Below, in pieces: positions 7,841 through 27,905 of a stretch of 64,000 nucleotides of DNA. The notes beneath the pieces were generated by a model, which saw only the letters and a list, made by a program, of their open reading frames with translations, did no database searches and was not told where the DNA came from. The stretch comes from Pirellulales bacterium (GTDB taxonomy: Bacteria > Planctomycetota > Planctomycetia > Pirellulales > Lacipirellulaceae): contig JBGSMO010000487.1 of assembly GCA_041740115.1 (NCBI GenBank), positions 7,953 to 71,952 on the forward strand, in the 5' to 3' direction. The position numbers and the translations under genes are program-made. How positions within the stretch are numbered: position 1 is the stretch's first letter; every line of letters starts with the position of its first letter.

Positions 7841-7855
7841 GGCTTAAAAATTCTT

Positions 7856-7987
7856 TAACCGCGAATTACGCGAATCTTCGCGAATAAGGAAATGCTGAGG
7901 AGAATTGAATACTGGATTCGCGGGCCAAGAGTTAGTTGCCTGCTCTTTAGGGAATGGTCCTCGTCTTATTCGCGTGATTCGCGGTTA
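7856..7987. repeat. 9-10-nt-periodic palindrome
   Basis: TAACCGCGAATTACGCGAAT (7856-7875) pairs with 7968-7987 (19/20). Confidence 0.85.
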
Positions 7988-8003
7988 GTTTTTCCTGCCC
8001 GCA

Positions 8004-9062: not shown

Positions 9063-9112
9063 GTGATTCAGTCGTGTGTCGGAGAGTCTGGTTCGTCGTT
9101 TGGCGAACCGCG

Positions 9113-9814: not shown

Positions 9815-9839
9815 GAGTGAGTTTCCGGTGAAGAAGCAA

Positions 9840-10886
9840 TTACTGGGCCGGAGCTGGATTGGCGGCAAGTTCGGCGGCCGAGGCGCCCGCCGTGAAGATT
9901 TCGAGTTCGCGGACGCCGATGACGCGAGCGGCGTAACGTTCTTTGCTAGCGAGCGATTGAACCATCACCAGATCGCCCATCCCGCCATCTTGCTGAGCCA
10001 TCGCGTAAGTTCGCACCGAAACGCCGGCGGCGCGGGCACGGACGCTGACGCGCTCGTTACGGCGGACGATGACCGGCGTGCGGAGCTGATTGGCCTGCAC
10101 GATCGAATCGGGGCGGATGCCTTGGACCGCCTCGTGGCCGACGACCGCTTCGAGCGACATAGCCGACTGCGAGGGGAGGGCGCCGAGGTGGGGGCGGAGC
10201 TCGACGTCGCTGCGGCGGACGAGGTCGCCCCTTTTGATCGGCTGCACGGCGAACACGGCCATTTCGAGGCGGTCGATTTTGGCGTAGAGGAGCGTCAGCG
10301 GTTGATTCGCTTCGCCGAGCAGCGTTAGACGCTGGCGCCCGATCCAGGGAGCCTCGCCGCCGCTCAGCTGGATCCGATCGCCGACTCGCTCCGCATATTC
10401 CGCCAACTTGCCGTCGGCTTCGACTTTGACGTTCCAGAGGTCGTGGCCCGTCTGAGCTTGAAGGTATTGCTTCACGGCGGCGGATAAGCGTTCGCCGGCG
10501 AGTTGGATTTCCTCTTCGGTCCGCAGGACGGGACGGCTCGGGACTTGGCGTTTCGACGTCTCAGCGGCGGGAACCGCCTCGGCGAGGACCGACACCACCA
10601 CCGTACCGCCGAAGCGCACATCGCGAACGTCGACGCCGCGCGAGGCGACCAGGTCGCGGATTTCAGCGAGCCGCAGATATTGCTGCGTGCCAGCAGCCGG
10701 CGTTGGGATGAGCGGAGTGGCGGCTAGCTGGCTGCGGAGCGCCTCGTCGTCCGCCTTGATTTCGGCGACGTCGCCCAGCAGGACGACCGAACCGCGGGCC
10801 TCGACGCGATTGCGGAGGATGACCTCCGTCGCCAGCGCAGGCGACGCAGCAAGCAGGGCGACCAGGATGAGGAGTAAGCGTGACAT
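9840..10886 (-). CDS. flgA: P-ring assembly chaperone FlgA
   Basis: Signal peptide, V.LGDVAEI N-domain, SAF-like IKRGDLV and C-terminal GGMGDLVMVQS. Confidence 0.88.
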   Translation of the reverse strand: MSRLLLILVALLAASPALATEVILRNRVEARGSVVLLGDVAEIKADDEALRSQLAATPLIPTPAAGTQQYLRLAEIRDLVASRGVDVRDVRFGGTVVVSVLAEAVPAAETSKRQVPSRPVLRTEEEIQLAGERLSAAVKQYLQAQTGHDLWNVKVEADGKLAEYAERVGDRIQLSGGEAPWIGRQRLTLLGEANQPLTLLYAKIDRLEMAVFAVQPIKRGDLVRRSDVELRPHLGALPSQSAMSLEAVVGHEAVQGIRPDSIVQANQLRTPVIVRRNERVSVRARAAGVSVRTYAMAQQDGGMGDLVMVQSLASKERYAARVIGVRELEIFTAGASAAELAANPAPAQ

Positions 10887-10898
10887 GGCTTCGTTCTG

Positions 10899-11705
10899 CT
10901 AGTAGCGGCGGAGATTTGAGGCGACTTGCATGATCTGGTCGCCCGTTTGGACGACCTGCGAATTGAGCTCGAACGCACGCTGGGTGGTGATCAGGTCAAT
11001 CAATTCCTGCACCGGCTGGACGTTGGAGGCTTCGAGCACGCCCTGGCGGACGGTGCCCATGCCGTTCGAGCCGGGAAGCCCGTCGACGGGGAAACTTGAG
11101 GCGTCGGTCTGGCGGTACAAGTTGTCGCCGAGCTTGATGAGGCCGTCAGGGTTGAGGAACTGTGAGAGGAGGATTTGCCCAGCGTTCTGCAGCGAGGGAT
11201 CGGAGGCGGTGCTGTATTGCACCTGGCCGTCGGTGGTGATGACGATGTTGGTCGCTTCGATCGGAATCGAAATCGGCGGGTCGATCACGAGGCCATTCTG
11301 AGCCGAGCCGAGAACGACTTGGTTGTTGGCGTTGATGCCGAAGTTACCGGCTCGCGAGTAGAGGGTCCCGCCGTTGGTGGCGTCGTTGACGCGGAAGAAA
11401 CCGTCACCTTCGATAGCCAGGTCCAACGGGCGATTGGTGGTCTCGAAGGCGCCCTGCTCGTAATTCGTTTGCGTGCTGGAGACGCGGGCACCGAGACCGA
11501 CTTCGACGCCGGTTGAGGTAATATTGCCGTCGGCGTCGAGGGCGCCAGGGTAACGGATTTGGCGATAGAAGAGGTCCTGGAAGTTGGCCCGATCTTCCTT
11601 GAACGCCGTGGTGTTAACGTTCGCCAGATTATTGGCAATGACGTCGAGTTTGGTCTCGAGGGCGTCCATGCCGGTGGCGGCGGTGTAGAGGGTTTGAACG
11701 CTCAT
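10899..11705 (-). CDS. flgG: Distal basal-body rod protein FlgG
   Basis: LYTAATGM...IANNLANVNTTAFK...FQDLFY; LEASNVQPVQELIDLITTQRAFELNS. Confidence 0.96.
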   Translation of the reverse strand: MSVQTLYTAATGMDALETKLDVIANNLANVNTTAFKEDRANFQDLFYRQIRYPGALDADGNITSTGVEVGLGARVSSTQTNYEQGAFETTNRPLDLAIEGDGFFRVNDATNGGTLYSRAGNFGINANNQVVLGSAQNGLVIDPPISIPIEATNIVITTDGQVQYSTASDPSLQNAGQILLSQFLNPDGLIKLGDNLYRQTDASSFPVDGLPGSNGMGTVRQGVLEASNVQPVQELIDLITTQRAFELNSQVVQTGDQIMQVASNLRRY

Positions 11706-14897: not shown

Positions 14898-15049
14898 TTA
14901 GCCGTTGGCGGGTGTGCGGGCGAGGACCAGCACGGTGACGTCGGCGGCGCCGGCGCGGCGCAGGACGCGGGCGGCTTCGCTGCAGGTAGCGCCGGTCGTC
15001 AGAATATCATCGACGATCAGCACCCGGGCGGCCGCTAAATGATAGGACG
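14898..15049 (-). pseudogene. comF: comF 3' fragment (PRTase core), separated from its 5' part by the integrated element
   Basis: Manual translation SYHLAAARVLIVDDILTTGATCSEAARVLRRAGAADVTVLVLARTPANG*. VLIVDDILTTGAT is the PRPP-binding loop. An in-frame TAG lies 3 codons upstream inside the element, so the fragment has no start codon. Confidence 0.95.
15035..15049. repeat. Left attachment core (15-bp direct repeat)
   Basis: CTAAATGATAGGACG, identical to 27275-27289. Confidence 0.96.
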
Positions 15050-15093
15050 GGGAACGCTAAACGGTAGTGACTTTTGGAGGTTTTGGACCGGAC

Positions 15094-15112
15094 GCAACGC
15101 GCAAAGCAACGC
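15094..15112 (+). repeat. Putative integrase arm-type site (left)
   Basis: GCAACGCGCAAAGCAACGC, identical to 27138-27156; 45 bp inside the left core. Confidence 0.8.
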
Positions 15113-15251
15113 GCGCCGATTATCCGGCCGGTTTTGCTAAGATACGACACTGCTGGGCTCGGGGACTAATTACCCCCACAGGCCCCGGCCGTCAGCGGAC
15201 CACACCCCGCGGCGGCCGGGACCGGCTCGGCTCTTTGAAAGGTGTGGAAGC

Positions 15252-15875
15252 ATGGACGAATGGCAACCCCCGAAGTTGGGCGCAACGCTCCGAATGCTCG
15301 TCAAAATGCGAGTTCTCTGCCACCGGGAGTTTGATGCGCCGCCATACGCTGGATGCAGCATTTCCGAAGCAGAGTATGAGGCCGCCGGCAGTGACGGCTC
15401 AACCGAGGTCGGCTACGTCTCTTGGCGGACTCGCTGCGAGCGATACTATCGGATTCCGCGAGGGAAGTTCGATGACTTTGAGCGGTTGAGTTCGACGTTG
15501 TGGGGCATTAACAATGCGATATTGTCCATCAAGGCCGCCAAGTTATTGATTCAGCTTGGAGAGCCCGTAAGCGTCATCGCGACAGAGTGCGAGAGCATAG
15601 CGACTTCATGCTTCGTTGTTGGGTCGCAACTACGCCGGTACGCAGACGTTTCAACTCACCGCGAAAAGTCGACGCCCGTTCGCGTGTCGCAATTCGCAGA
15701 CATAGCGGTGGCCTCGAAAGCACGTGATGAAATCAAGCGGCAATTAAGATCGCGGTTGCCCTGGACTGCAGCAACGGACCGCGCCGCGACGACGCTTCGG
15801 AGCCATGGTATCCAAACAACTGGAAAAACCCTTAGGAACAACTTCGCCGACTTGAGGCCCGAAAAGGCGAAGTGA
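15252..15875 (+). CDS. Hypothetical protein (element)
   Basis: 207-aa ORF with no recognised motif; first gene of the element. Confidence 0.65.
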   Translation: MDEWQPPKLGATLRMLVKMRVLCHREFDAPPYAGCSISEAEYEAAGSDGSTEVGYVSWRTRCERYYRIPRGKFDDFERLSSTLWGINNAILSIKAAKLLIQLGEPVSVIATECESIATSCFVVGSQLRRYADVSTHREKSTPVRVSQFADIAVASKARDEIKRQLRSRLPWTAATDRAATTLRSHGIQTTGKTLRNNFADLRPEKAK

Positions 15876-16010
15876 AACGCGGAAACAACCCCGTAGCTTC
15901 CGAAAACTTGGCGGGAAATTACCCCGTCATTTCCGGGAATCATTGGTGACGCCCCTATCGTGATTGCAGTGCCGCACACAGCGGCAAGCACACGACAAAG
16001 GGAGCGACCA

Positions 16011-16214
16011 ATGGTAGCCGCAGCAAACTCACAGCAGCCTCTGCAAGTCAGCGAGCGTGAAGCCGCTCGCATTCTCGGCGTCTCACCGAAGACGCTCTTC
16101 AATCGTCGCCAAGCCGGCAAGATCGGCTTTGTTCGCGACGACGGCCGGATTCTCTACCGGCTCGACGAACTGCAGCGCTATTCCAAGGCCCGGGAAGTCC
16201 CGGCCGTTCTCTAA
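16011..16214 (+). CDS. Excisionase/AlpA-like winged-helix DNA-binding protein
   Basis: LQVSEREAARILGVSPKTLFNRRQAGKIGFVRDDGRILYRLDELQRY fits the Xis/MerR-like HTH pattern; SD AAAGGGAG before ATG 16011. Confidence 0.85.
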   Translation: MVAAANSQQPLQVSEREAARILGVSPKTLFNRRQAGKIGFVRDDGRILYRLDELQRYSKAREVPAVL

Positions 16215-16308
16215 CCCCCACCACCGCCTGGCTGTCCGCGCATTAAAACGCCCGGACGCACCGAGGGCTCAATTTCGGTGGCCGGGCAAAATCGAAAGGA
16301 CTATCCCC

Positions 16309-16554
16309 ATGATAGGGACCATTCAGCTGCAAACCAAGGCTTGCATGGTTTGCTTTCGTGCTGACTCCGTCGCCGGCAAAACTGTCAGCGGCAAGCAGGC
16401 TTGCTCTCAGTGTTGGAGGAACGACAGAGCTGCTGCAAAGCGTCGCGGCAAGATGCGGCCGGGCGTTTGTGCGACGGTCAACGCTTCACTGCCTTCGGTG
16501 AAGCATGTCGCCTCTCTCCCCGGTCAACTCGGCCTCTTCGGGGAGGGCGAGTAA
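16309..16554 (+). CDS. Small CxxC-CxxC (possible zinc-binding) protein
   Basis: SD GAAAGGA before ATG 16309; CMVC...CSQC; stop overlaps the next start (TAATG). Confidence 0.65.
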   Translation: MIGTIQLQTKACMVCFRADSVAGKTVSGKQACSQCWRNDRAAAKRRGKMRPGVCATVNASLPSVKHVASLPGQLGLFGEGE

Positions 16555-16934
16555 TGCAACACCAACCGCCCCCTGCCGTCCCAGTAATGCTCACCGGCCT
16601 ACTCCACGAGAACGGCCAACTCTTCACCGTGTTCGCCGCCGGCGACTCAGAGCGGATCATCGAAGCCGAGCTCTACGACATTCTGCCATTCGATAACTTC
16701 CGTCAGCACGTCCACGAGCGACTCGACTTGCGAGTCGTCTACCGACGCGGCCGTTGGTTCGCCGACGTGATTGAAGCCGCTGAGCGTGGCGGAATCGCAA
16801 TCGAGGTGGACGACCTCACCCGTTGCATCTGGTTGAACGATCGCCAGTTGAGTTACGCCGAAGCTGGATACGCTGCCGAGATTATGCTTTCGCCGGTTGT
16901 CCGTCTAGCCGGCAAGCTGGGGGTGGCCGGATGA
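16554..16934 (+). CDS. Hypothetical protein (element)
   Basis: 126 aa; translationally coupled on both sides (TAATG and ATGA overlaps). Confidence 0.7.
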   Translation: MQHQPPPAVPVMLTGLLHENGQLFTVFAAGDSERIIEAELYDILPFDNFRQHVHERLDLRVVYRRGRWFADVIEAAERGGIAIEVDDLTRCIWLNDRQLSYAEAGYAAEIMLSPVVRLAGKLGVAG

Positions 16935-18688
16935 TTGCAGCCCCGCATGGAATCGCGATTCTCGACGCCCTGGAAGGCGTGAAGTCGAACGGCCAAGACT
17001 CGTGGATGGCTCAATGCCCTTGCCACGAAGATTCAACCGCCTCGCTATCGATCACCCGCGAAGGCGACAAGACGCTCGTTTACTGCCATGCCGGTTGCGA
17101 CACTCGCGACGTGGTCGCCGCTTCTGGTTTGACGATGGCAGACCTGGGGCCGCGTAACGCCAACGGTTCAGCTCCGCACGTCGATAAGGTTTACGACTAC
17201 CGCGACGCTGACGGCTCGCTGATATCTCAAGTCGTGAAGATGCTGCCGAAGGATTTCCGCCAACGTCGGGCGGACGGCACGCCGAGCGTTAAGGGCTGCA
17301 AGGTCGTACCGTACCGGCTCCCTGAAATCGTCCGGGCTGATCCCGCGGCGCCCGTGTTCGTCGTCGAAGGCGAAAAGGATTGCGACAACCTGGCGAAGCT
17401 CGGCATCATCGCAACGTGCAACGCCGGCGGCGCTGGGAAGTGGCGGGCGGTTCACGCTGAGCACCTGAAGGGCCGGCACGTCGTCGTGCTTCCCGACAAC
17501 GATGATCCTGGCCGCAAGCACGCCGAGCAAGTTGCTGCGACGCTCGCGGGCATCGCCCGCAGCGTGAAGACGGTCGAGCTCCCCGGCTTGCCCGAAAAGG
17601 GGGACGTTTCGGATTGGCTCGCTGCAGGTGGGACCGCGGCGAAGCTACTGGAGTTGGCTGCGGAATCGTCCGACGAAGCTGCGGCGTTCCCTAAGTTCAC
17701 GCTCGGCGAACTGACTGAGAAGTTCCGCACGCTCAGCCCACCGGTGATTCACGGTTTCATCCGCGAGGGTGAGACTGCCAACTTCATAGCGAATCCGAAG
17801 ACCGGCAAGTCGTGGACGATGTACGGCTTGGCCATCAACGTCGTCACTGGGTCGGATTGGCTGGGATTGTTCCCAGTCTCTCAAGGTCGCGTGCTGCTGA
17901 TCGACAACGAACTTCACCCCGAGACGCTTGCTCACCGCATCCCGGCTGTTGGCAATGCTCTAGCTAGGCCGTTCGAGGACTATCGCGACGGCATCGACAC
18001 ATGGTGCCTTCGCGGCAATCTTCGCAGCCTGCAACAGTTGCTTGTCGAGTTCCGCAAGTCGGTCGAGCCGCGTCAGTACAAGCTGATCATCTTCGACGCC
18101 AAATATCGCTTCGCGGCCGAAGGCACGAGCGAGAACGACAACGCGGCGGAGACGGCTGTTTACAACCTACTCGACCAGATCGCGGCAGAGACGCGATCAG
18201 CCCTGATCGTCGTTCATCACGCGAGTAAGGGCGGCCAATCTGACAAACGCGTTACCGACGTTGGCGCGGGAGCCGGTGCTCAGAGCCGGGCGGCTGATTG
18301 CCACATGGTGCTGCGCGAGCATGAGGACGAGGGTATCGCCGTGCTCGACGCTGCGGTGCGATCGTTCCCGCCGGTGGCGCCAGTGGCTTTGCGTTGGTCA
18401 TTCCCGATCTGGATTCCCGACGAGTTCGCGGACGCTGCCAAGCTCAAGGGCAAGCAAACCCGCAATGAGGAACGGACGGCGGAGCGAGACAAAGAGGGCA
18501 TCGACAAGATCATCGCCGTGCTGATCACCGGGCCCGCGACAGCCAGCGTCATTAGGCAGGGGACCGGAATCAGCAAAGACCGGTGCGACCGCCTACTTAA
18601 CAAGCTCACTGCCGACGACCAGATCCGCGTGGAGATGGTGAAGGTGAAGGGCAATGAATGCCGCGAATACCACGTTGTCGATGGTTGA
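16931..18688 (+). CDS. Primase-helicase (Zn finger + TOPRIM + RepA/AAA_25-type helicase)
   Basis: CPCHED...CHAGC zinc site; VFVVEGEKD and VVVLPDNDDPG TOPRIM motifs; Walker A ANPKTGKS; Walker B LIIFD; C-terminal wHTH-like segment. Confidence 0.92.
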   Translation: MIAAPHGIAILDALEGVKSNGQDSWMAQCPCHEDSTASLSITREGDKTLVYCHAGCDTRDVVAASGLTMADLGPRNANGSAPHVDKVYDYRDADGSLISQVVKMLPKDFRQRRADGTPSVKGCKVVPYRLPEIVRADPAAPVFVVEGEKDCDNLAKLGIIATCNAGGAGKWRAVHAEHLKGRHVVVLPDNDDPGRKHAEQVAATLAGIARSVKTVELPGLPEKGDVSDWLAAGGTAAKLLELAAESSDEAAAFPKFTLGELTEKFRTLSPPVIHGFIREGETANFIANPKTGKSWTMYGLAINVVTGSDWLGLFPVSQGRVLLIDNELHPETLAHRIPAVGNALARPFEDYRDGIDTWCLRGNLRSLQQLLVEFRKSVEPRQYKLIIFDAKYRFAAEGTSENDNAAETAVYNLLDQIAAETRSALIVVHHASKGGQSDKRVTDVGAGAGAQSRAADCHMVLREHEDEGIAVLDAAVRSFPPVAPVALRWSFPIWIPDEFADAAKLKGKQTRNEERTAERDKEGIDKIIAVLITGPATASVIRQGTGISKDRCDRLLNKLTADDQIRVEMVKVKGNECREYHVVDG

Positions 18689-18830
18689 CCGACAACGTAC
18701 CCGACTACCCGACAACGGGCTGACGGGTGGGGTGGTGGCTCCCTAAAGGGGGAGCCGACAACCCTACCACGTCAGCCTACAGGAACGACAACGATGAATT
18801 CAACAATCGACAACGTACCCGACCGACAAC
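18674..18830. promoter_or_regulatory. Putative replication origin (iterons + hairpin)
   Basis: CGACAAC at 18690, 18710, 18756, 18786, 18808 and 18824, inverted at 18674; the 16-mer CGACAACGTACCCGAC twice; GGCTCCC/GGGAGCC hairpin at 18737-18756. Confidence 0.6.
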
Positions 18831-19009
18831 GCCAGACCACCATCATCTTCGACCAAACAGTCGCCGACCGCATCGAAAGCTTGCTGGCTCGCGTCGAAGG
18901 CGTCCGCCGCGGCGCCACGATCGACCGGCCAACCCGATTCAACCGCGAAGGCGAGCGCCACGCCCGTCGCGTAGCCCAAGCCGACCAATCCCGCGGGACT
19001 TCCCGCTAA
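18794..19009 (+). CDS. Hypothetical protein (element)
   Basis: 71-aa ORF with SD AGGA; its 5' end overlaps the iterons. Confidence 0.5.
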   Translation: MNSTIDNVPDRQRQTTIIFDQTVADRIESLLARVEGVRRGATIDRPTRFNREGERHARRVAQADQSRGTSR

Positions 19010-19034
19010 CCCCGTTTCCTGAAAGGAAAAACCG

Positions 19035-19475
19035 ATGGTAGTTTCCAACCACCCCGACCTCCGCGCCGCCATGTACGCCGCCCACATGGGCACTGGCGGA
19101 ACTCGCGACGAACTGCTCGCCCTAGCTCGACGTCACGGCCAGACGCCGGAGATCTTCGACGCCGACTACGCCGAGATGGGGCGCCGGATTGCGTTGCACA
19201 ACGCCTATTGGTCGTCGCCCGAAGGTTTGGCCATCCGCGACGCTCGGCAGAAGCTCGCTGAAGCCGCTCAGGCCGTCGACGCCGCTGTCGCAGAGTTCGC
19301 GAGCGACGCCCGGGTCGATCACCTGCGGAAGCTGCAGGCCGACGCCACGGCGGAAGTGAACAAGCTGCAGAATGCCAACAGCGAGCAGTTCCAAGCGTTC
19401 TCCAAGGCGATGAAGGCCACGGCCCACCCGGGCGACGCCAACTATCTCGACCCGGCCAACGTGCTCATTCACTAA
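19035..19475 (+). CDS. Hypothetical helical protein (element)
   Basis: 146 aa; strong SD GAAAGGAAA; phage-like codon style. Confidence 0.75.
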   Translation: MVVSNHPDLRAAMYAAHMGTGGTRDELLALARRHGQTPEIFDADYAEMGRRIALHNAYWSSPEGLAIRDARQKLAEAAQAVDAAVAEFASDARVDHLRKLQADATAEVNKLQNANSEQFQAFSKAMKATAHPGDANYLDPANVLIH

Positions 19476-19494
19476 TTCGATGAAAGGAAACACA

Positions 19495-20100
19495 ATGCAA
19501 ATCGTAAAAACCCCGCCGCTCCCGGCGCCCAAGGTTATCCAGCGGCCGTCAGACCGGATCTCAGCCGCCGACCGAGAAGAGATCTACGGCATCATCTGCC
19601 CGGCCGTCGAAGCCGGTAAGCCGCTCACGAAGTCGGAAACGGCCCGCGTCAACGCGATCGTCTCCGGCAAGCCCGTCGGCGTCTTCGTGGCGGAGGCTCA
19701 TCGGTTCGCCCGTGCCGTCGCCGCTGGCGAGGACGTCGCAAACTCGTCGCCCGATCTGCTCCGACTGCTGCAGGATGGACCGGCCGCCGCCCTGATGAAC
19801 GCCGCGACCGCCCGCAAGGCTCTGGCCGACGCGTTCGAGAAGACCGGCTACTTCAAGCGGGTGGCTGAGTTGAAAGAAGCGTGCCGGACTGCACTCGAAG
19901 CCTTCCAGGTCGCCGAGGCGGATGAAGATACCAGCATGCGGAAGATTCGGCGGCTTCAATTGGAGCACGAGCAATCGATTCAGCGGCTCAGTGACTTCTC
20001 GAACACCGCGAACGCCGAATTCACGCTGTTCCGCCGCGAGATGAAGAAGACCGCCGATCTCTCCAAGAACGAACTGCTCTGGCAGAACTTCCTGATTTAA
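19495..20100 (+). CDS. Hypothetical coiled-coil protein (element)
   Basis: 201 aa from ATG 19495 after TGAAAGGAAACAC. Confidence 0.75.
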   Translation: MQIVKTPPLPAPKVIQRPSDRISAADREEIYGIICPAVEAGKPLTKSETARVNAIVSGKPVGVFVAEAHRFARAVAAGEDVANSSPDLLRLLQDGPAAALMNAATARKALADAFEKTGYFKRVAELKEACRTALEAFQVAEADEDTSMRKIRRLQLEHEQSIQRLSDFSNTANAEFTLFRREMKKTADLSKNELLWQNFLI

Positions 20101-20109
20101 GGAGCGACC

Positions 20110-20448
20110 GTGGCAGCCTACGTTCTCAACCCGAAGCATCCCAATTATCGATTTGTACGCACGGTGACGATCGCCGGCCGTCAACCTCGCATCGTCATTT
20201 TCAAAGATGGCGCCGAGGTGGAACTCGACCCAAAGGAGGTGCGATTCCTCGCGGAAGAGATTGCCGCCAATTGGATCGGACTGGCCGGAGTCAAGTTTCC
20301 CAAACCGGAGAAGCCCATTCCCGCGCGGCTGGACCCATCCGAACTGGAAGACCGAGACCCTGAGACGTTTGAATTTGTTCGACCTGAAGACCGACCCCGT
20401 TGGTGGCAAGAGCGGCGTGCAATTTTCCGCGCCGTCAACGGTCGCTGA
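20110..20448 (+). CDS. Hypothetical protein (element)
   Basis: 112 aa; SD TAAGGAG before GTG. Confidence 0.7.
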   Translation: MAAYVLNPKHPNYRFVRTVTIAGRQPRIVIFKDGAEVELDPKEVRFLAEEIAANWIGLAGVKFPKPEKPIPARLDPSELEDRDPETFEFVRPEDRPRWWQERRAIFRAVNGR

Positions 20449-20474
20449 CCCTTTTACCCCTGAAGGAGTTTCCC

Positions 20475-20891
20475 ATGTCCCACTTTGACGATTTCGATGA
20501 CGACGACGACGACTACGAGATCGAGGCTAGTTCCAACCTTCGCCAATTTAGCAGCGGCACCTTGGCAGGCCGACTGGTCGAGAAGATCACGGCACTTCAG
20601 CAGGAGCAGCCGCTTACCCGTGCATTTACAACCCGACCAAGTCACAGGGCTATGCAAACCCAAACCCCTAAGCGGAGCGCCGAGCATCCGATCGTCACGA
20701 AGTATAAGGCCAATCACGGCAGCTATGCCGTCGCAGGCGTCACGCTGTGCGAATTCGCGTTGGACCACTTCGTCAATGACGACGACGCCGGAGAGCCCAG
20801 CGCCGCCCTGATCGCTGAGATTGAAGCTGAGAGCGCAGTTCTTCAGGCGGCTTGGATGAACGGTGAGATCACCAACCCATTTGATGCGTAA
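20475..20891 (+). CDS. Hypothetical acidic protein (element)
   Basis: 138 aa from ATG 20475 after GAAGGAG; begins with a poly-Asp tract (MSHFDDFDDDDDDY). Confidence 0.7.
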   Translation: MSHFDDFDDDDDDYEIEASSNLRQFSSGTLAGRLVEKITALQQEQPLTRAFTTRPSHRAMQTQTPKRSAEHPIVTKYKANHGSYAVAGVTLCEFALDHFVNDDDAGEPSAALIAEIEAESAVLQAAWMNGEITNPFDA

Positions 20892-21088
20892 GCGAGAGCC
20901 GGGCGACAAGCGGGGCCTTAATCCTGAATTTGCACCCCGTGGCCGAGTCGATCGTTGCGGTTCTCTTGACCGCAGCGTGTGTAACAAAGCCCGTCGCCTG
21001 TCCAGTCGGCTACCAGTCGCCCCCTTCGTTCCTTGTGTGGAAGCGGGGCGGCTGGGGCTGATTGATGGCAAAGGCCACCCCGCCGGTG

Positions 21089-21124
21089 GGGTCCTTCCGG
21101 CCTTCGTCAGACCACCCTCGGGTG
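21089..21124 (+). promoter_or_regulatory. Putative cos-like packaging site
   Basis: GGGTCCTTCCGG (21089-21100; lambda cosQ is GGGTCCT, followed by TTCCGG), then the 12-bp dyad CACCC-TC-GGGTG (21113-21124), about 75-100 bp upstream of the Nu1-like gene. Confidence 0.45.
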
Positions 21125-21196
21125 AAGCATCGAACGCCTTTTACACGTCAGGAGTTGAGAGTTGACCCCTAATAATAGCACCCTGGAGGCCCGCAA

Positions 21197-21685
21197 ATGG
21201 CCGCTGTAGCCCTCGAACCCCAGACTCTGAGCAAACACATCTGCGCCGATCTCCGCGATATGGGGCATTGGACGCGCGCCGTGCCGGAGATGTTCCGGGG
21301 CCTGATCGCGATGCATCGGGAAGGCGGCGAAACCGTCGTGAAGACGCTACCGGAAGTTGCCGCCGCGTTCAACATGGCTCCGCAGTCAGTCAAAGGCGAC
21401 TGGCGTGATGGCGGCATGCCTGGCCGTCCTGGGCGCTGGGATCTCGCCGAGATTTTGTGTTGGCGAATCGAGCGTGACGGGCGTGCTCGCGGGGCGACGG
21501 TCGATACGACGCCCGTTGAATCGCTGGTCGACAAGGCTTTGGAGCTACTCAGCGAGCAATACGGAATCACGCACGTCATCGCCGGCGGCGAGCGTCTCGC
21601 CCAAGCATGGGCCGACACGTTGGCCGAGGCGGAAGCGGGAGAGAAGAAACGGGCCCCTAGTGCTCGGAAGCGAATCACCAACTAG
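21197..21685 (+). CDS. Terminase small subunit (lambda Nu1-like) DNA-binding protein
   Basis: PEVAAAFNMAPQSVKGDWRDGGMP...WDLAEILCWRIERD aligns by eye with Nu1 KQLADIFGASIRTIQNWQEQGMP...YDSAAVIKWYAERD. Confidence 0.65.
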   Translation: MAAVALEPQTLSKHICADLRDMGHWTRAVPEMFRGLIAMHREGGETVVKTLPEVAAAFNMAPQSVKGDWRDGGMPGRPGRWDLAEILCWRIERDGRARGATVDTTPVESLVDKALELLSEQYGITHVIAGGERLAQAWADTLAEAEAGEKKRAPSARKRITN

Positions 21686-21710
21686 CCCGACGGGCTGAAA
21701 GGAAACACGA

Positions 21711-23267
21711 ATGAGCGCGAAGTTTGAAATCGGCGGTTCAGCCAGCGGCGCCGTCAAGGCGGTTGAGGAACTCAACAAAGCGTTGAACAAGACCGGCAAA
21801 GAAGCCGAGGGCGCGATCACGCCGACTAAGAAGGTGCAAGAGGCCGCGGCCCGATTGGCCCAACAAGCCGATCCGCAAGAGAAGTACAACGAACGGATGC
21901 GAAAGCTGGTCGAAGCAGTCAAGGGCGGGGGCCTGGAAATCTCCAAGGCGGAAGTGTTGGCCAAACGCTACGGCACGGCGCTTGATAAAGCCGGCGACTC
22001 CGGCGACAACGCGTTCGGTTCCGGGATGCTCGGCAAGATCATGGCGATGGGCGGCGGCATCACGGCGACGCTCGGTCCGCTCGCCCTGATGAAAAAAGGG
22101 TTCGACGATATCTCCGACTCGATCGAGAAAGCCAAGAACGCCAGCGCGGAAGCTCGCCGCGGCATGGGCTCACTTCGACAGTTGGCCAACTCCGACGCCG
22201 AGTTCCAGGGATTGAAGAGTAAGGCGGAAGCTTTGTTCGCCAATGGCTCAGTGCAGACGCTCGACCAGGGAGCGCAAGCCGTCTTCTCGTTGGCGTCTGC
22301 CGGTCAGCTCGACGACAAGAGTTTCAGCATGTTCGCGGGCCTGGCTCAAAAGGGCGTCGTCGATCCGGGGATGTTAGCCAAAGCAGTTCGCCAGTACCAA
22401 TCGGGGTTCGGCGCCGCCGAGACGGGCGGGGCTGGGCAGATCATCTCCAAGGCGTTCGCGGCGTCGGCCTACTCACCGGCGTCGGTCGAAGGGTTGCTCG
22501 GCGCCAGCCCGCAGATGGCGGCAGCCGCGTCGTCGTTGGGGATCAGCGACGAAGAATCGCTCGCGTCGCTGGCGGTGTTGTCGTCGAGCGTCGGGGAGAA
22601 CGTCGCGGCGACTCAGATTCGTGCGTTCCTTAGTTCGACGGCGAACATGGAGGGGACCGAGGGCATGAGCATTGCCGAGCGCGTGAAGATGGTCGCCGGC
22701 AAGAACCTGGATTACGCCAGCCTGAAGAAAACTCTGGGGACCGATGAAGCGACGACGGGCTTCGGCCTGCTGTCCAAGAATATGCAGGAGATTCAACGGG
22801 CGAATCTGGATATTCAAAAGGCGAATTCAGACACAGGCGCGGTAAGTCGTCGCCTGGGTTTCACCGACGCCGAGTCCGATGCAGCCCTGTCGTCGATGAT
22901 GATCGAGAACCAAGGCATTCTCCAAGACCGTCGCGTGGCGGCTTATGAGGAGTTGCGCGACGGCATCTTCGAACGGCAGCGGCAAGGGTTCCGCGAAAGC
23001 GCCAAGAACGGACTCCCGCAGCGATTGAACGCGTCGTTCGACCTGGGGCTAAGCCATACCCAAGAGTTCCTCAACGGCTACCTGATGAGTCCCGAGACGT
23101 TCGTCAACGTCAACGAGTCAGCGGTCGGCAGCGGCGGGATGAGCGACCAGCAACAGGCCGTTCTCGAATCGCTGAATCGTTCGGCAAAGGCGGCTGAGCA
23201 GACGGCGGAAGAGATCAAGCGGCTCTCCGGTCAAAACCGCAGCAAGGTCACGACGAGGCAAGAATGA
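21711..23267 (+). CDS. Phage tail tape-measure-like protein (518 aa)
   Basis: Ala/Gly/Ser-rich helical protein with the TMP-type core ASSLGISDEESLASLAVLSS...AATQIRAFL, an N-terminal PQEKYNERMRKL segment and a C-terminal coiled coil. Confidence 0.72.
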   Translation: MSAKFEIGGSASGAVKAVEELNKALNKTGKEAEGAITPTKKVQEAAARLAQQADPQEKYNERMRKLVEAVKGGGLEISKAEVLAKRYGTALDKAGDSGDNAFGSGMLGKIMAMGGGITATLGPLALMKKGFDDISDSIEKAKNASAEARRGMGSLRQLANSDAEFQGLKSKAEALFANGSVQTLDQGAQAVFSLASAGQLDDKSFSMFAGLAQKGVVDPGMLAKAVRQYQSGFGAAETGGAGQIISKAFAASAYSPASVEGLLGASPQMAAAASSLGISDEESLASLAVLSSSVGENVAATQIRAFLSSTANMEGTEGMSIAERVKMVAGKNLDYASLKKTLGTDEATTGFGLLSKNMQEIQRANLDIQKANSDTGAVSRRLGFTDAESDAALSSMMIENQGILQDRRVAAYEELRDGIFERQRQGFRESAKNGLPQRLNASFDLGLSHTQEFLNGYLMSPETFVNVNESAVGSGGMSDQQQAVLESLNRSAKAAEQTAEEIKRLSGQNRSKVTTRQE

Positions 23268-23584
23268 GCACCATCAGCGCCGACGCACGCTATGCCGAAC
23301 TGCTCACGCACGTCGACTTTCCCGACTGGTGGATTTTCGTCGTCGGCGCCACGCACGTCATCGAACGATGGCACGGCGTCAGCCTGCCGGTAACGACCGT
23401 CGGGCTGATCGAAGTAAAGAAGCAAGGCGTCGACTTCAAGGAACCGAAGTGGGCGTTGCTGCTCTGGGAACTTGGCGCGGAGGCGGACTTCATTGAGAGG
23501 CTACAGCGTGCAACCGCCGAACTGGGAACCGACCGAAGCGGAGATAGCGGCACAGTGTGCGGAGATCCGCCGCGGGTGGAGTGA
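23264..23584 (+). CDS. Hypothetical protein (element)
   Basis: 106 aa; ATGA overlap with the tape-measure-like gene. Confidence 0.55.
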   Translation: MSTISADARYAELLTHVDFPDWWIFVVGATHVIERWHGVSLPVTTVGLIEVKKQGVDFKEPKWALLLWELGAEADFIERLQRATAELGTDRSGDSGTVCGDPPRVE

Positions 23585-23672
23585 GGCGGAGCTGCGGCGG
23601 CGCTCGGCGTGGATGGTCTGCGAGCCGGTGACGGCGCCGGTGGCCGAAGAATCGCTCTTTGATAACTCGTGA
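23508..23672 (+). CDS. Small protein with a PTEAEIAAQCAEIRRGW motif
   Basis: GTG at 23508 with SD GAGAGG; 54 aa; overlaps the end of the previous ORF in another frame. Confidence 0.5.
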   Translation: MQPPNWEPTEAEIAAQCAEIRRGWSEAELRRRSAWMVCEPVTAPVAEESLFDNS

Positions 23673-23786
23673 AGATAAAACCGCCTCCGCACGCGCCGCG
23701 TCGTGCGTTGCGAGGGGCGGGCGTGACCATCGAGCCGCGTTTCGCTGCGATGCGTGAGGCGGGCGCTGAGGGGCTGAGAAGCGAGA

Positions 23787-23816
23787 TTGACAAAACGGGC
23801 GGCTGCGGAGCAAAAT
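23787..23816 (+). promoter_or_regulatory. Sigma-70-like promoter
   Basis: TTGACA-N18-CAAAAT upstream of the 24051/24443 gene pair. Confidence 0.5.
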
Positions 23817-23832
23817 AGCGGCGTCAAAGCAC

Positions 23833-23862
23833 GAACCTTCGGAAGTTAATTTCCGAAGGTTC
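23833..23862. repeat. Perfect 12-6-12 inverted repeat (operator or lox/dif-like recombination site)
   Basis: GAACCTTCGGAA-GTTAAT-TTCCGAAGGTTC. Confidence 0.85.
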
Positions 23863-24050
23863 AATCGCGGGCCTGAGAATCCGCGATACACGCAGTGAGT
23901 TATGTCGAATGGTGAGAAACAAGAACGATCGGCAGAGAGGGTGCGCAGGAAGGCAACGACCTGCGGGCGGTCTCACCCGCCTGACAGCGCCACCTCTGCC
24001 GGTCGTTTTTCTTAGCCCGTGCCGTTCTGGCCGGGCGGAAGGATTCTCCC

Positions 24051-24446
24051 ATGGCCCTCGCACTCTACGCGGGCGACGACCTAGAAGTCTGTCACGACAC
24101 GCGGACTTGGCTGCGGCAAGGTAAATCAGCCATCGAAGGCGGCTATCTAATCGAAGGCGCCGCGTTGCTCCAAAGAGCGGTTCGCGAGTTCCTGCAAGCC
24201 GACTGCGACTACTGGGGCGTTCCCCGGCATCGCACGCTGATCGGCATGGCGAAGTCACTTTATCGAGCCGAGCAGGTCACGCCCGATTCTTATGCGGTAC
24301 TGTCCGGCATCATCTCGACGTGCAACCGCGTCGTGCGTTGCGAGCCGAGGCGTTGCGAAGATGAAAGCCACTTGAAGGCATGCCTGCTAGCCATGCACTC
24401 ATTCTGCGACGGGACCGCCTATCTCGACGAAAGGAGCCAAGCATGA
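24051..24446 (+). CDS. Hypothetical helical protein, possibly HEPN/DUF4145-like
   Basis: 131 aa; GAALLQRAVREFL...TLIGMAKSLYRAEQVT...VLSGIISTCNRVVRC resembles the HEPN helical layout but lacks Rx4-6H; coupled to the recombinase by an ATGA overlap. Confidence 0.55.
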   Translation: MALALYAGDDLEVCHDTRTWLRQGKSAIEGGYLIEGAALLQRAVREFLQADCDYWGVPRHRTLIGMAKSLYRAEQVTPDSYAVLSGIISTCNRVVRCEPRRCEDESHLKACLLAMHSFCDGTAYLDERSQA

Positions 24447-25639
24447 GCACGACCGACAACAAGGCCGACTGGCCCCTACTCCGCATCGTCAACGAGATCA
24501 TGAAGCCGACCGGGCGATGGAAGCCGGCGGTCATTCGCGGTTATCGAGTTGTAGTACGACGCTACGAACGGTTCCGCGGCGGCGAGCAGACGGCCGGCGA
24601 AGTGACCGTCCGTCTGCTGGAGAAGTTCAAGGAACTGATGATTGCCGAGGGCGTTAAGACAAAGGCCGCGGCGACGAAGGCGAGCTACATCGGAACCATC
24701 GTCCGCCAAGCCGACCCCGATCTGTTGCCGAAGCGCAACCTTGGCGAGTACAGCAAGGCCGAGCAAGGCGACCTGCTCTACATCATGGAAAACGAATACT
24801 TCCCGGCGAAGTCGAAGATTGCGAGCGAGACGACGGAGCGGCAGTACAAGTACACGGCGACCCGTTTCTCGAAATTCTTGGGGCGTCGCGCGACGCTCGC
24901 CGACTTAACGGACCAAAGCCTCGGTAAATGGATGCGACAAATGCGAAAGGATGGTTTAGCGATGCCAACGATCAACGGCTACGTCACGAAGCTACGGGCG
25001 TTTTGGAACTGGTGTGCGAAGAAGCGGATGGTCGAAGAGTTCCCGACGATCGAAGATTTCCCCGAGCCGATGACGATTCCCAAGGCGTATAGCGAGGAAG
25101 AGTTTCGGTCCCTGATCGCCGCTACAAAGCTCATGGAAGGTCACGTGGGCGACGTGCCGGCCGGGCAATGGTGGTATGCGTTGCATCTGGTGGCGTTCGA
25201 CACGGGGGAGCGATGTTCGGCGCTGTTGCATCTTGAGTGGACCCACTACGACGCGGGAGACGCGACGCTCGCCGCTCCGGCTGAGATCCGCAAAGGGGGA
25301 CGCAAGCCGATGCTCTATCGCCTGAAGCCGGCGACCGTCGCCACGTTGGCGACCATGCGAGCGACGGCCAGCGGCAAGAAGATATTCTTCTGGGCGCATG
25401 ACGCAACGACGTTCTACAACCACTACAAAAAGCTGCTGGAGTTGGCGGGGCTGCCCTACGTTCCGCACAAGAGCGGGCTGCAAAAGGTGCGTCGGACGTT
25501 CGCCAGCCATATCGAAGCGGCTGGCGGCAACTCGACGCAGGCCCTTAGTCACACGTCGCGGCGAGTGACCGAGAAGTCGTACATCGATCCAAGAATCGCC
25601 AAGGAACCGCCGCACAACGACGTGCTGTTCGACCTGTAG
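24443..25639 (+). CDS. Tyrosine recombinase 1
   Basis: Catalytic motifs FDTGERCSAL (R), KGGRK, LQKVRRT (Q at the HxxR His position), LSHT...TEKSY (H, Y). Confidence 0.92.
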   Translation: MSTTDNKADWPLLRIVNEIMKPTGRWKPAVIRGYRVVVRRYERFRGGEQTAGEVTVRLLEKFKELMIAEGVKTKAAATKASYIGTIVRQADPDLLPKRNLGEYSKAEQGDLLYIMENEYFPAKSKIASETTERQYKYTATRFSKFLGRRATLADLTDQSLGKWMRQMRKDGLAMPTINGYVTKLRAFWNWCAKKRMVEEFPTIEDFPEPMTIPKAYSEEEFRSLIAATKLMEGHVGDVPAGQWWYALHLVAFDTGERCSALLHLEWTHYDAGDATLAAPAEIRKGGRKPMLYRLKPATVATLATMRATASGKKIFFWAHDATTFYNHYKKLLELAGLPYVPHKSGLQKVRRTFASHIEAAGGNSTQALSHTSRRVTEKSYIDPRIAKEPPHNDVLFDL

Positions 25640-26000
25640 CCCCACCGCCGCGGGCAGGCGGCGGTTTTCAAGAAGATCCGGGCGGGCCAAGTTGCTGAGG
25701 GTCGACACAACAACGCCTTGGCGCCGCCCGGAAGCGACCAATGGAGTATTGTTTTGGCCCTGCGCCGTGCCTGAAAAATCTGGCGCGATTGCGCCACGAT
25801 GCCGGTTGCTTGCCGGTGTGAGCGCGGATTGTATGAAAAGCCGTGACGGCGACCCCGCTGGCTAGCAAATCAGCGAAGGCCGCCGCCACAGACCGTTTGA
25901 TCGTTAATAGGCGGCGAGCCCTGGAACGAGTTCCCCAGAGCCCGCCGCCGACAGGAGCTAACCAGCAACTCTACCACCTTTTTTGAGCATTGGAGAAAAA

Positions 26001-27224
26001 ATGGCATCGTTATCAACTTACCAAGACGGCAAGAAAAAAGGCCGGCATCGCGTCCTGTTCACCGACCCCACCGGCAAGCGGCAGACGATCTACCTTGATC
26101 GCATTCCCAAGAAAACGGCCGAGGGCGTTCAACGCGCCATCACCGAGCTTGAGCGATCGGCCCGCTACGGTCACTCGGCGGCAGACTTCGCGTTGGCATG
26201 GCTATCGACCGCCGGCGATGAGATCCGCGAACGACTGACGAAGTTCGGGCTCGCGTCGGCTCGCATGGTCGAAGCGCCCGAGGCGGTAACTCTCGGCACG
26301 CTGGTCGACCTGTACCAGCTTCGCCCCGAGTGGCAGCAGCTGAAGCCCAAGACGATCAAGAACAAGTTGCGCCACTTCAAGCTGGCCCTGGCGTTCTACG
26401 GCGCCGACAAGCCGGTCGAGTCGATCACCAAGGCCGACGCCAAGGCGTTCTACGCGATGCTGCAGCTTCCCGAGGCCAAGGGAGGGCACGACTTCGCCGT
26501 CGCCACGGCCAACCAGACGGCCTCGACGCTGTTCGCTCTGGTCAGCTTCGCCATCGACGCCGAGCTGGTCGACCGGAACGTGTTCAAGGTTCTGCCGCGG
26601 AAGGCCCGAAAGGGGAACAACGTAAACGTCAGCGAGGCTGTCAGCCTTGCAGTGCTCGATTCGCTGCAGACCACCGAGGACAAGCTGCTGTTCGCCCTGG
26701 GGCGCTGGGGCGGGCTACGGATGCCCTCTGAGGGGACGCAGCTACGCTGGCAGGACGTTGATTGGGAAAGGGAGCGTTTCTACACTCGCAGCCCTAAGAC
26801 CGAGCGCCACGAGGGCAGGGAAGGGCGTTGGGTGCCGATCTACCCGCCGTTGGCGCCGCTGTTCCGCGAGATGTTCGAGAAAGCCGCCGACGGCGCCGTC
26901 TACGTTCTCCCGAACTATTGTCATGCGATCTACTCCAAGCCGACGCAGACGCTCAAACAAGCGATCAAGCACGCGGGCGTCGAGCCATGGCCAAGAGCGT
27001 GGCACAGTTGCCGAGCGACGCGGCAGACGGAACTGGCGGCCGATTTTCCGGCTCATGTCGTCGCGAGTTGGATGGGAAACACCGTCGCGGTCGCCGACGC
27101 TCACTACCTGATGGTGCGTGAACTCGACTTTGCAAAAGCAACGCGCAAAGCAACGCAGCACACGCCCGCAACGACGGATAACGAGAAGAAAACGGCTGGC
27201 GTGAACCCTGCAAATCCTCGATAA
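26001..27224 (+). CDS. Tyrosine recombinase 2, likely the integrase for the comF site
   Basis: N-terminal arm-binding-like region (GRHRVLFTDPTGKRQTIYL); RWGGLRMPSE (R), SPKTE (K), WHSCRAT (HxxR), WMGNT...AHY (Y); ends 50 bp from the right att core. Confidence 0.94.
   Translation: MASLSTYQDGKKKGRHRVLFTDPTGKRQTIYLDRIPKKTAEGVQRAITELERSARYGHSAADFALAWLSTAGDEIRERLTKFGLASARMVEAPEAVTLGTLVDLYQLRPEWQQLKPKTIKNKLRHFKLALAFYGADKPVESITKADAKAFYAMLQLPEAKGGHDFAVATANQTASTLFALVSFAIDAELVDRNVFKVLPRKARKGNNVNVSEAVSLAVLDSLQTTEDKLLFALGRWGGLRMPSEGTQLRWQDVDWERERFYTRSPKTERHEGREGRWVPIYPPLAPLFREMFEKAADGAVYVLPNYCHAIYSKPTQTLKQAIKHAGVEPWPRAWHSCRATRQTELAADFPAHVVASWMGNTVAVADAHYLMVRELDFAKATRKATQHTPATTDNEKKTAGVNPANPR
27138..27156 (+). 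repeat. Putative integrase arm-type site (right), inside the integrase CDS
   Basis: GCAACGCGCAAAGCAACGC, identical to 15094-15112; translated as part of KATRKATQ. Confidence 0.8.
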
Positions 27225-27263
27225 TTGCAGGCTGTTGCAGGTGGTTGCCGTTCTATTCCGGAC

Positions 27264-27905
27264 CTAAAGAGCGTCTAAATGATAGGACGCACCTACAGCC
27301 ATTTCTCCCGCCAAATTGCGAAATCGCGCGGGGCGTGATAACCCGACCTGGGGCGGCACATCCCGCACAAGCCGCAGCATCTCGCCCGCGCAGGGGACGT
27401 TCAGCTTTTCGGCGAGGCGGCGAGCGATCAGTTGCGGTGCATTCGCGCCTCGTTGCCATCGGCGCCACCGGTGCATCGGGACGGCGGTGACGACGTCGAT
27501 CTGTAACTCCAGTAGCTGGTTGCTGAGCCGCTGCCATGCCAGTTCGGCGAGCGCGTGCGTCACGACCCCTTGGCGATCGGCCTTCGTGCGCATCACGAGT
27601 TGCCGTAACAGCCCTTCGTAGCTGCCGAGCGCGATCGCCCGCTGGAAGCGAAGCTTGTCGCCGCGGCAGTGGTTGCAGGCGAGGTCGACGCCATTCGTCG
27701 AGGGGACCGGCGCAGCGCAGCGGGGGCAGACTGGCCAGTCGATGAATTCGAGGCGCTCTTCACACTCTCGGCAGATGGGTGACTCGCGCTGCTCTTCGCC
27801 GAGGTCGCCGTGGCAGGCGATGCATTTGGCGGGGAAGAGGAGATCGAGGCCGGCGCCTACGGCGTGTCGCCACCATCGAGTTCGTTGAGTTGGCGGTGTT
27901 GGCAT
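27264..27905 (-). pseudogene. comF: comF 5' fragment (double zinc ribbon + N-part of PRTase), truncated by the element
   Basis: LDLLFPAKCIAC...CREC...CPRC...CNHC, TAVPMHRWRRWQRGAN and QVGLSRPARFRNL; ends ASYHL+DAL* at the att core and lacks the DD..TTGAT motif found at 14898-15035. Confidence 0.95.
27275..27289. repeat. Right attachment core (15-bp direct repeat)
   Basis: CTAAATGATAGGACG, identical to 15035-15049. Confidence 0.96.

Follow-up and report, generated by a model that had tools for sequence, protein, structure and literature searches.

A tape-measure-protein homologue as the only recognisable virion gene of a 12.25-kb integrative element from a Pirellulales bacterium

The DNA analysed in this study (the window: 64,000 nucleotides, positions 7,953 to 71,952 of contig JBGSMO010000487.1, assembly GCA_041740115.1, Pirellulales bacterium) harbors a compact integrative element of 12.25 kb, in which a gene encoding a protein of 518 amino acids (aa) was the only one recognisable as a virion gene. 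Judged by its homologues, their genomic context, and its predicted fold, this protein is identified as a very diverged homologue of phage tape-measure proteins (TMPs). A TMP is held by chaperones and nucleates polymerisation of the tail tube from the tip complex; it sets the tail length, with each residue contributing about 0.15-0.16 nm, and its ejection aids passage of the DNA across the envelope. The explanation we favor, with about even chances, is that the element is a satellite whose own TMP would be built into the tails of a helper phage, resulting in chimeric tails.

The tape-measure homologue and its element

The open reading frame (ORF) at 21711-23267 on the plus strand was found just as an earlier inspection of this DNA (the sequence-only reading) had described it. 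It opens at an ATG located eight bases 3′ of AAGGAAA, and its TGA stop codon overlaps the ATG of the following gene in an ATGA motif, as read directly from the sequence, so that both genes are probably translationally coupled. For the downstream gene, no family match was obtained in Pfam, PHROGs, or NCBIfam, and its family profile also returned nothing from the PDB.

21711-23267, + strand: TMP homologue, 518 aa (homology via relatives, context, fold, and region-wise identity)
23264-23584, + strand: 106-aa gene (ATGA overlap with the TMP-homologue gene; 59% identical to the 96-aa gene directly 3′ of the TMP-like gene in the related locus L003)

Full-length relatives of the TMP homologue reach 52-65% identity, and the family profile retrieved 1,635 clusters (median length, 516 aa) from a library of 1.8 billion proteins. 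Pairwise ratios of non-synonymous to synonymous substitutions (dN/dS) ranged between 0.22 and 0.39 within the closest group of homologues (dS being saturated and the ratio rough), and all copies of the TMP-like gene examined were intact. Full-length homologues, dN/dS values, and the number of clusters together indicate that the ORF is a genuine gene under purifying selection. The encoded protein is rich in alanine (15%), glycine (11%), and serine (10%) and contains neither cysteine nor tryptophan. Its residues 1-100 represent an N-terminal type starting with MSAKF, followed by a Gly-rich hinge (residues 101-128), which is the sole hydrophobic stretch, and by a core of the PF10145 type (residues 131-400); the C-terminal part is helical and ends with TTRQE.

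The proposal that the protein resembles a TMP was borne out by its homologues, their position in phage modules, and its fold, and not by direct profile search of the protein itself. The homologue set comprised 15 proteins, and a repeated search with their alignment returned the identical 15. Nine of them matched PF10145 (PhageMin_Tail; best E 8.5e-14), and several matched PHROGs annotated as tail length tape measure. Comparison of the TMP homologue with the PF10145-positive proteins P0005 to P0011 yielded E values between 1e-48 and 1e-98; P0007, originating from Posidoniimonas corsicana, was 37% identical over 444 aa. No match was obtained in a tblastn search of the TMP homologue against 50,697 GenBank phage records.

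Relatives sharing 35-37% identity with the window protein occupy the TMP slot of lambda-like head-tail modules. In the case of P0007, P0010, and P0015, the upstream side encodes a lambda-type portal, an S49 protease, a major capsid protein (phrog_1005, 6.8e-27), and head-tail genes, and several large (distal tail) genes follow downstream. The order of portal, protease, and capsid, then a conserved gene for 249-265 aa, the TMP, and large downstream genes was found in five phage modules (L002, L007, L008, L014, and L015). An AlphaFold (AF2) model of the window protein, computed with the 15-sequence alignment, consisted entirely of helices and was confident over residues 130-510 (mean predicted local distance difference test score, pLDDT, 72). 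Using Foldseek, 120 matches to this model were found in BFVD at E≤1e-3, and nearly all named structures among the 50 best were tape-measure or minor tail proteins; the same search against the PDB gave nothing meaningful. Since homologues match PF10145 and sit in the TMP slot, and since the predicted fold matches viral TMPs, the 518-aa protein is assigned to the TMPs as a very diverged member. In its own genome, it is neighbored by a helix-turn-helix (HTH) protein and the 106-aa gene, followed by integrases, and not by chaperone or distal tail genes. One homologue, P0005 (611 aa, on a 3-kb contig), runs C-terminally into integrase-like sequence, which reflects either an artefact (frameshift or assembly) or the direct abutment of a TMP gene and an integrase gene.

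The lengths of the TMPs encoded by small elements (504-526 aa) and by phage relatives (522-581 aa) are similar. Computed from the residue count, tails of about 78-83 nm are predicted for the former and of 78-93 nm for the latter, so that any change in tail length would be small, namely about 0-10 nm. The sequence-only reading had proposed particles with tails of a different length or injection specificity; from these values, no marked difference in length is to be expected.

The borders of the element are defined by a 15-bp exact direct repeat, CTAAATGATAGGACG, at 15035-15049 and 27275-27289. In-silico removal of 15050-27289 joins two pieces on the minus strand into an ORF of 254 aa carrying DZR_2 and Pribosyltran domains (32 bits, cutoff 26.3), i.e., a comF-like gene. 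The exact repeats and the restorable ORF thus bound the element precisely (15035-27289, 12.25 kb).

15035-15049, no strand: attL core, left copy of the 15-bp repeat CTAAATGATAGGACG (exact repeat)
27275-27289, no strand: attR core, right copy of the 15-bp repeat CTAAATGATAGGACG (exact repeat)
27264-27905, - strand: comF-like gene, N-terminal part with double zinc ribbon (PF18912, 6.4e-12; stop codon supplied just within the element)
14898-15049, - strand: comF-like gene, detached C-terminal part with the phosphoribosyltransferase motif VLIVDDILTTGAT (empty-site reconstruction)

All element genes are located on the plus strand, and no pseudogenes were visible. Tail, capsid, portal, and terminase families of Pfam, PHROG, and NCBIfam were matched by none of the element ORFs, a large terminase was likewise missing in the family searches, and no lysis genes were recognised. 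The reach of such profile-based absence is limited, as the tail genes of the related phage modules themselves escape the PHROGs. For this reason, the element proteins were compared directly with the proteins of the phage modules, applying phmmer against all proteins of the five modules and hhalign against the families of three of them (L002, L007, and L008). Except for the TMP, nothing was common to the element and the structural proteins of the modules, and the best hhalign probability between element and structural families amounted to 7.5%. The uncharacterised element ORFs encode at most 207 aa each and about 1,300 aa in total, which we judged to fall short of the size of distal tail or tip proteins. 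The TMP being the only shared protein and the remaining ORFs being small, the description of a lone TMP appears fair, and the claim that the element lacks other tail genes held as far as it is testable. Features typical of satellites are present, namely an integrase with attachment (att) repeats, a replication module of its own, a size of 12.25 kb, and a TMP as the only recognisable virion gene.

Related elements, phage modules, and the composition of the gene

A locus search with a narrow alignment conserved at the N-terminus recovered five related loci, and broad alignments gave none. Relatives of the TMP homologue originate from assemblies of Pirellulales, Planctomycetaceae, and Phycisphaerae. 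Five of the related loci represent phage or prophage-like modules, namely L002, L007, and L008 as well as the viral contigs L014 and L015. The modules in L002 (1-21632, Posidoniimonas corsicana) and L007 (900-18900) encode portal, protease, capsid, tail genes, and TMP; in both, a host gene directly precedes the small gene located ahead of the portal, and a recognisable large terminase or replication gene is absent. The integrase of L007 adjoins a tRNA-Glu gene, and the fetched L002 locus ends before any integrase. Both may themselves be dependent or defective elements.

Several other relatives are small elements. L003 is an 11.3-kb insert at a tRNA-Phe gene, the bounding repeat of which includes the 3′ half of the tRNA. 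It encodes an AAA_25 protein, a protease-capsid fusion of 660 aa, the TMP-like gene, the 59% homologue of the 106-aa gene, and a tyrosine integrase. Genes for a portal, a terminase, or a tail tube were not found in this locus. Its fusion (7800-9782) combines a prohead protease with a major capsid protein (phrog_4523, 1.1e-41; PF25209) and lies directly 5′ of the TMP-like gene. L017, from a Planctomycetaceae assembly, features a 719-aa primase, small ORFs, a TMP-like gene for 504 aa, and a serine integrase. Three contig fragments (L005, L011, and L013) are syntenic with the window upstream of the TMP: a block of genes for 201, 112, and 138 aa and the HTH protein precede the TMP in L005 and L011, and L013 has the 112-aa gene and the TMP in common with the window. 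L005 starts with a helicase-like gene and an HTH_36 gene. In total, at least three independent small elements with differing integrases and primases retain an intact TMP-like gene, and this recurrence across different replication and integration modules makes a chance deletion remnant unlikely. Relatives located in a complete tail operon, which had been named as an indication of such a remnant, do exist among the more distant homologues, and were not found among the relatives sharing synteny with the element.

The closest homologue (65% identity) derives from L004; this locus and L011 keep a phage gene of 257-259 aa adjacent to the TMP. L019 (10.9-kb contig, 1-10614) encodes a 53% homologue of the 162-aa HTH protein of the window, a tyrosine integrase, ParB, and a PrimPol-AAA_25 protein, and the arrangement of its genes resembles that of a permuted (possibly circular) version of such an element. 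It has no TMP. The TMP is therefore to be regarded as an accessory module, and the pair of small-terminase-like gene and TMP, the preservation of which in relatives the sequence-only reading had named as a check, is not fixed.

Region-wise comparison of the TMP homologues revealed two different histories within the window gene. Residues 1-100 share 62-70% identity with L003, L004, L010, and L011, 48% with the phage L014, and 21-22% with L002 and L007. For the core (residues 131-400), identity amounts to 73% with L004, 59% with L005, 43-45% with L002 and L007, and 16-29% with L003, L010, L011, L013, L014, and L017. The breakpoint coincides with the Gly-rich hinge, and these identity values indicate that the window TMP is a mosaic, consisting of an N-terminal part of 100 aa from one lineage and a core of the prophage lineage.

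The conserved gene for 249-265 aa occurs in each of the five phage modules as well as in two small-element loci, where it adjoins the TMP or is one gene away from it. The protein family showed no Pfam, PHROG, or PDB match and is a candidate for a chaperone or another TMP partner. The members are as follows (coordinates within each locus):

L002, 9131-9922: TMP-neighbor gene
L007, 9124-9921: TMP-neighbor gene
L008, 8810-9598: TMP-neighbor gene
L014, 9150-9935: TMP-neighbor gene
L015, 9165-9914: TMP-neighbor gene
L004, 1866-2645: TMP-neighbor gene
L011, 1734-2507: TMP-neighbor gene

Across these seven loci, similarity of the neighbor proteins tracks that of the N-terminal 110 aa of the TMP (Spearman rho 0.63) and not that of the core (rho -0.27). 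This covariation fits simple linkage together with recombination within the TMP gene; a functional pairing of the neighbor with the TMP N-terminus would fit it as well.

Gene content, integration site, and metagenome read-out

The remaining genes and candidate sites of the element are listed below.

15252-15875, + strand: first element gene, 207 aa (ORF list; Pfam, PHROG, and NCBIfam searches empty)
16823-18688, + strand: primase-helicase with CHC2 zinc finger, Toprim, and AAA_25 (PF13481 8e-29, Toprim_2, Zn_ribbon_DnaG, phrog_239 4.6e-37)
19035-19475, + strand: 146-aa gene (ORF list and gene call in L001; family searches empty)
19495-20100, + strand: 201-aa gene opening a conserved four-gene block (same-order homologues in L005 and L011; family searches empty)
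20110-20448, + strand: 112-aa gene of the conserved block (homologues in L005, L011, and L013; family and PDB searches empty)
20475-20891, + strand: 138-aa gene of the conserved block (homologues in L005 and L011; family and PDB searches empty)
21197-21685, + strand: Nu1-like winged-HTH protein, 162 aa, candidate small terminase or Rpp-like packaging-redirection protein (weak profile matches)
23833-23862, no strand: 30-bp near-perfect palindrome, candidate operator ahead of the 131-aa gene/integrase operon
24051-24446, + strand: 131-aa gene upstream of integrase 1 (ORF list, gene call; family searches empty)
24443-25639, + strand: tyrosine integrase 1 (Phage_int_SAM_5 7.5e-11; phrog_1 4.8e-20)
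26001-27224, + strand: tyrosine integrase 2, beside attR (Phage_integrase 5.6e-7; phrog_1 3.3e-22)

The gene directly upstream of the TMP homologue had been labelled a small terminase (TerS), an assignment which our searches did not establish. The 162-aa protein matched phrog_57 weakly (E 0.008), and the six-sequence profile of its family matched TerS 6hn7_B (E 0.013), RppC 6hlk_A (E 0.034), and Nu1 1j9i (E 0.13) in the PDB. Its motif GMPGRPGRWDLAEILCW presumably corresponds to the winged HTH of lambda Nu1, which it resembles by our own reading. An AF2 model (pLDDT 76) predicted an HTH followed by C-terminal helices, and Foldseek returned generic MerR/BldC-like HTH regulators only (E about 1), confirming neither TerS nor Rpp. 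Homologues are encoded in L005, L011, and L019. The protein is a DNA-binding protein that could have a TerS or Rpp-like role. No pac or cos site was identified in the element.

The primase-helicase is 48% identical to the AAA_25 protein of L003 in its helicase part, and its real start is probably located downstream of the listed TTG. Integrase 2 shares 29% identity with the integrase of the L007 element. The palindrome, which could serve as an operator, is located within the gap of 466 bp upstream of the 131-aa gene and the integrase genes, just 3′ of the only sigma70-like promoter match of the element (23787-23816). Three further ORFs (16057-16554, 18727-19041, and 20863-21165) were rejected as genes: they look like non-coding frames of GC-rich DNA, being rich in arginine and proline, and were left uncalled in the public contig where it covers them.

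An exact 19-nt repeat, GCAACGCGCAAAGCAACGC, containing GCAACGC submotifs, is located near both element ends (15094-15112 and 27138-27156), the right copy lying inside the 3′ end of integrase 2; its copies are possible recombinase arm sites. Another exact 19-nt repeat (23696-23714 and 24326-24344) marks the left border of the module comprising the 131-aa gene and integrase 1. The metagenome contigs described below contain a second element that has only this module in common with the window element, with loose ends at 23710 and 25664. This suggests that integrase modules are swapped between elements, which may account for the presence of two tandem integrases.

The element splits the comF-like gene just ahead of the phosphoribosyltransferase motif. 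Since precise excision would restore the 254-aa ORF, comF function could be tied to the presence or absence of the element at this site. Integration at a tRNA gene was ruled out for the window element, as the window contains zero tRNA genes. The genes flanking the element are chromosomal and include flagellar genes, hemC, lptF/G, complex I, and pyruvate carboxylase. The flagellar cluster (2192-11705, - strand) encodes an unusually long flagellin-like protein of 899 aa, the N- and C-terminal flagellin domains of which are separated by about 670 residues.

To date, the only public run containing the sequence is a biofilm metagenome from a hot-spring study, the contigs of which were used. Over the element, these contigs are identical to the window and reach a coverage of about 19x. 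Next to it, host DNA of the same contig shows 26 differences to the window within 27327-27663 (about 8%), and the window's own flanks are found at 2-4x. Either two diverged strains carry an identical element at one common site, or strains were merged in the source assembly. An identical element beside a flank diverged by 5-8% was rejected as proof of recent transfer, because collapse of strains during assembly could give the same picture.

Possible roles of the gene and comparison with known satellites

The reading given about even chances assumes a helper siphovirus of the lambda-like planctomycete group, which would assemble the tails and supply tube, chaperone, tip, and capsid. The element TMP would replace the helper TMP inside the tail tube, and particles carrying element DNA would receive chimeric tails equipped with the element's own ruler and injection protein. 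Helper dependence, incorporation of the TMP, and the resulting benefit are all inferred steps. The benefit may consist of selective or efficient assembly or transfer of the element's own particles, of an escape from host or prophage factors targeting the helper TMP, or of interference with the helper. The same logic was demonstrated experimentally for the PLE satellites of Vibrio cholerae, which encode a TMP, a TAC chaperone, and the baseplate hub BhuB (bioRxiv 10.1101/2025.01.29.635557; Nature 2026, PMC12987554). PLE virions contain the PLE TMP and exclude that of the helper ICP1, their tails measure 94 nm compared to 106 nm for ICP1, the PLE TMP shortening the tail by about 10 nm, and deletion of tmp cuts PLE transduction by 96-99.9% (PMC12987554). 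The same paper noted predicted tmp genes in other satellites (PMC12987554), and the EPIPs, 11-kb satellites of Mycolicibacterium aichiense, were also described to encode a TMP (bioRxiv Dec 2025, PMC12822802). The concept of a satellite-encoded TMP is therefore already published, and the suggestion that it represents a mechanism beyond the usual hijacking is dated by the chimeric tails of PLEs (PMC12987554) and the TMP of EPIPs (PMC12822802); the window element adds a member from a new phylum. Of the idea of a satellite with its own TMP, the presence of the TMP homologue in a compact, bounded element and its intactness in relatives stand, and the mechanism attached to it is plausible, though in part overstated. 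A literature search found no paper linking Planctomycetota and phage satellites.

Like the PLEs, the window element is integrative, carries its own replication and integration genes, has no tail tube gene, and encodes a diverged TMP of nearly helper length. PLEs, however, reside in a different host phylum, parasitise a myovirus, and add a chaperone and a baseplate hub, whereas the window element has the TMP alone with the coupled 106-aa gene; moreover, it is known from its genes alone and was likened to PLEs by layout rather than by sequence comparison. Because it is devoid of a chaperone or hub, it is not filed in the PLE family. With the EPIPs (about 11 kb), it has in common a small size, an integrase, a TMP, and the absence of a tail tube gene; EPIPs also encode a small terminase, for which the 162-aa protein is a candidate in the window element. 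EPIPs exploit a siphovirus-type prophage helper, and their TMP was proposed to alter the tails (PMC12822802). They differ by encoding a head-to-tail adaptor, stopper, scaffold, capsid protein, and serine integrase, whereas the window element has no capsid or connector genes, and by tails that are much longer than those of the helper, whereas the window TMP is about as long as the TMPs of related phages. PICIs, among them those of E. coli with Rpp packaging-redirection proteins, and P4-like satellites resemble the element in size class, integrase, and primase-helicase, in lacking genes for capsid, tail, and lysis, and in a small Nu1-like HTH protein (weak TerS and RppC matches); classical PICIs and P4 differ in having no TMP, and homology to PICI or P4 marker genes was not found in the window element. 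Siphovirus TMPs of the TP901 family (PF10145/TIGR01760 core) are related to the window protein by homology via PF10145-positive relatives, by fold, by the helical, low-complexity composition, and by the Gly-rich hydrophobic segment. Unlike these TMPs, the window protein shows no direct profile match and no chaperone or distal-tail flanks, and it is short compared to the many members of 700-1,400 aa.

Several results weigh against chimeric tails built with a satellite TMP. The window protein itself matched nothing in Pfam, PHROG, or NCBIfam even at E≤1, nor among PDB sequences. A tail assembly chaperone or hub was unrecognisable in the element, whereas PLEs have both, and the TMP-neighbor gene, encoded in all five phage modules as well as in L004 and L011, is absent from it. 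Matches pointing to a packaging role of the 162-aa protein lie in the range of E 0.008-0.13. As L019 has no TMP, the gene is not essential to this type of element. Furthermore, L002 and L007, possessing the phage TMP cores most similar to that of the window, have no recognisable large terminase, so that a competent helper is not identified even in kind. Finally, neither a circular junction nor an excess in element copy number was detected in the contigs of the one metagenome.

Among the alternatives, interference appears the least improbable, although we consider it unlikely. In this case, the element TMP would poison the tail assembly of the helper or of competitors, or would occupy the membrane partner needed for DNA injection and thereby protect the host through defence or exclusion. 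A hybrid TMP, with a core 43-45% identical to those of L002 and L007 and an N-terminus of another lineage, could be able to bind only a subset of the partners; the element itself encodes no chaperone or hub, and satellites are known to target TMP-dependent tail assembly, e.g., by means of Rta of PLE11. The full length of 504-526 aa, kept as in phage TMPs, and the conservation of both termini meet the needs of a ruler more than those of a blocker, however, and the pairing of the TMP-like gene with a capsid gene in L003 points to particle building. Somewhat less probable still is a decaying prophage in which the TMP is left over from a larger phage genome and has no current role. The more distant relatives in complete head-tail modules, the phage gene of 257-259 aa still held by L004 and L011, and the existence of the element type without a TMP, represented by L019, would agree with decay. 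The exact att repeats, the compact co-oriented genes, and the lack of visible pseudogenes are at odds with it, as are the intact TMP ORF coupled to a conserved partner gene, its retention in at least three independent small elements, and dN/dS values well below 1.

We regard as quite improbable that the element is no satellite at all, and that the TMP-like protein has a use unrelated to tails or belongs to a minimal delivery apparatus formed by the small unannotated genes. Eight element ORFs and the block for 201, 112, and 138 aa have no detectable relatives of known function, and profile libraries cover the phage proteins of this host group poorly, which leaves room for such a system. Nevertheless, these ORFs (≤207 aa, about 1,300 aa in total) are unlike any structural protein of the five phage modules, and the only members of the TMP-homologue family with a known context are phage TMPs.

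Going beyond the single element, the loci compared here may belong to an undescribed, modular family of planctomycete satellites with no virion gene, or hardly any, besides a TMP that is itself recombinant: its N-terminal module would travel with the neighbor gene for 249-265 aa, and the core would be swapped in. This proposal is tentative and holds less of our confidence than chimeric tails do. Current satellite finders and profile libraries would miss L003, L005, L011, L013, L017, and L019, because almost none of their genes are recognisable.

Should helper tails indeed be built with a satellite TMP, piracy at the level of the tail would not be confined to the Vibrio PLEs; it would extend to a distant phylum, to siphovirus-type helpers, and to a form relying on the TMP alone. 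The mosaic gene suggests a possible way of matching a satellite TMP to a helper tail, in which the N-terminal module covaries with the phage neighbor gene and the core is exchangeable. If the modular family is real, the N-terminal module of the TMP would function as an address deciding which TMP enters which tail, and this would bear on the question, raised by the PLEs, of how a satellite TMP is selectively incorporated.

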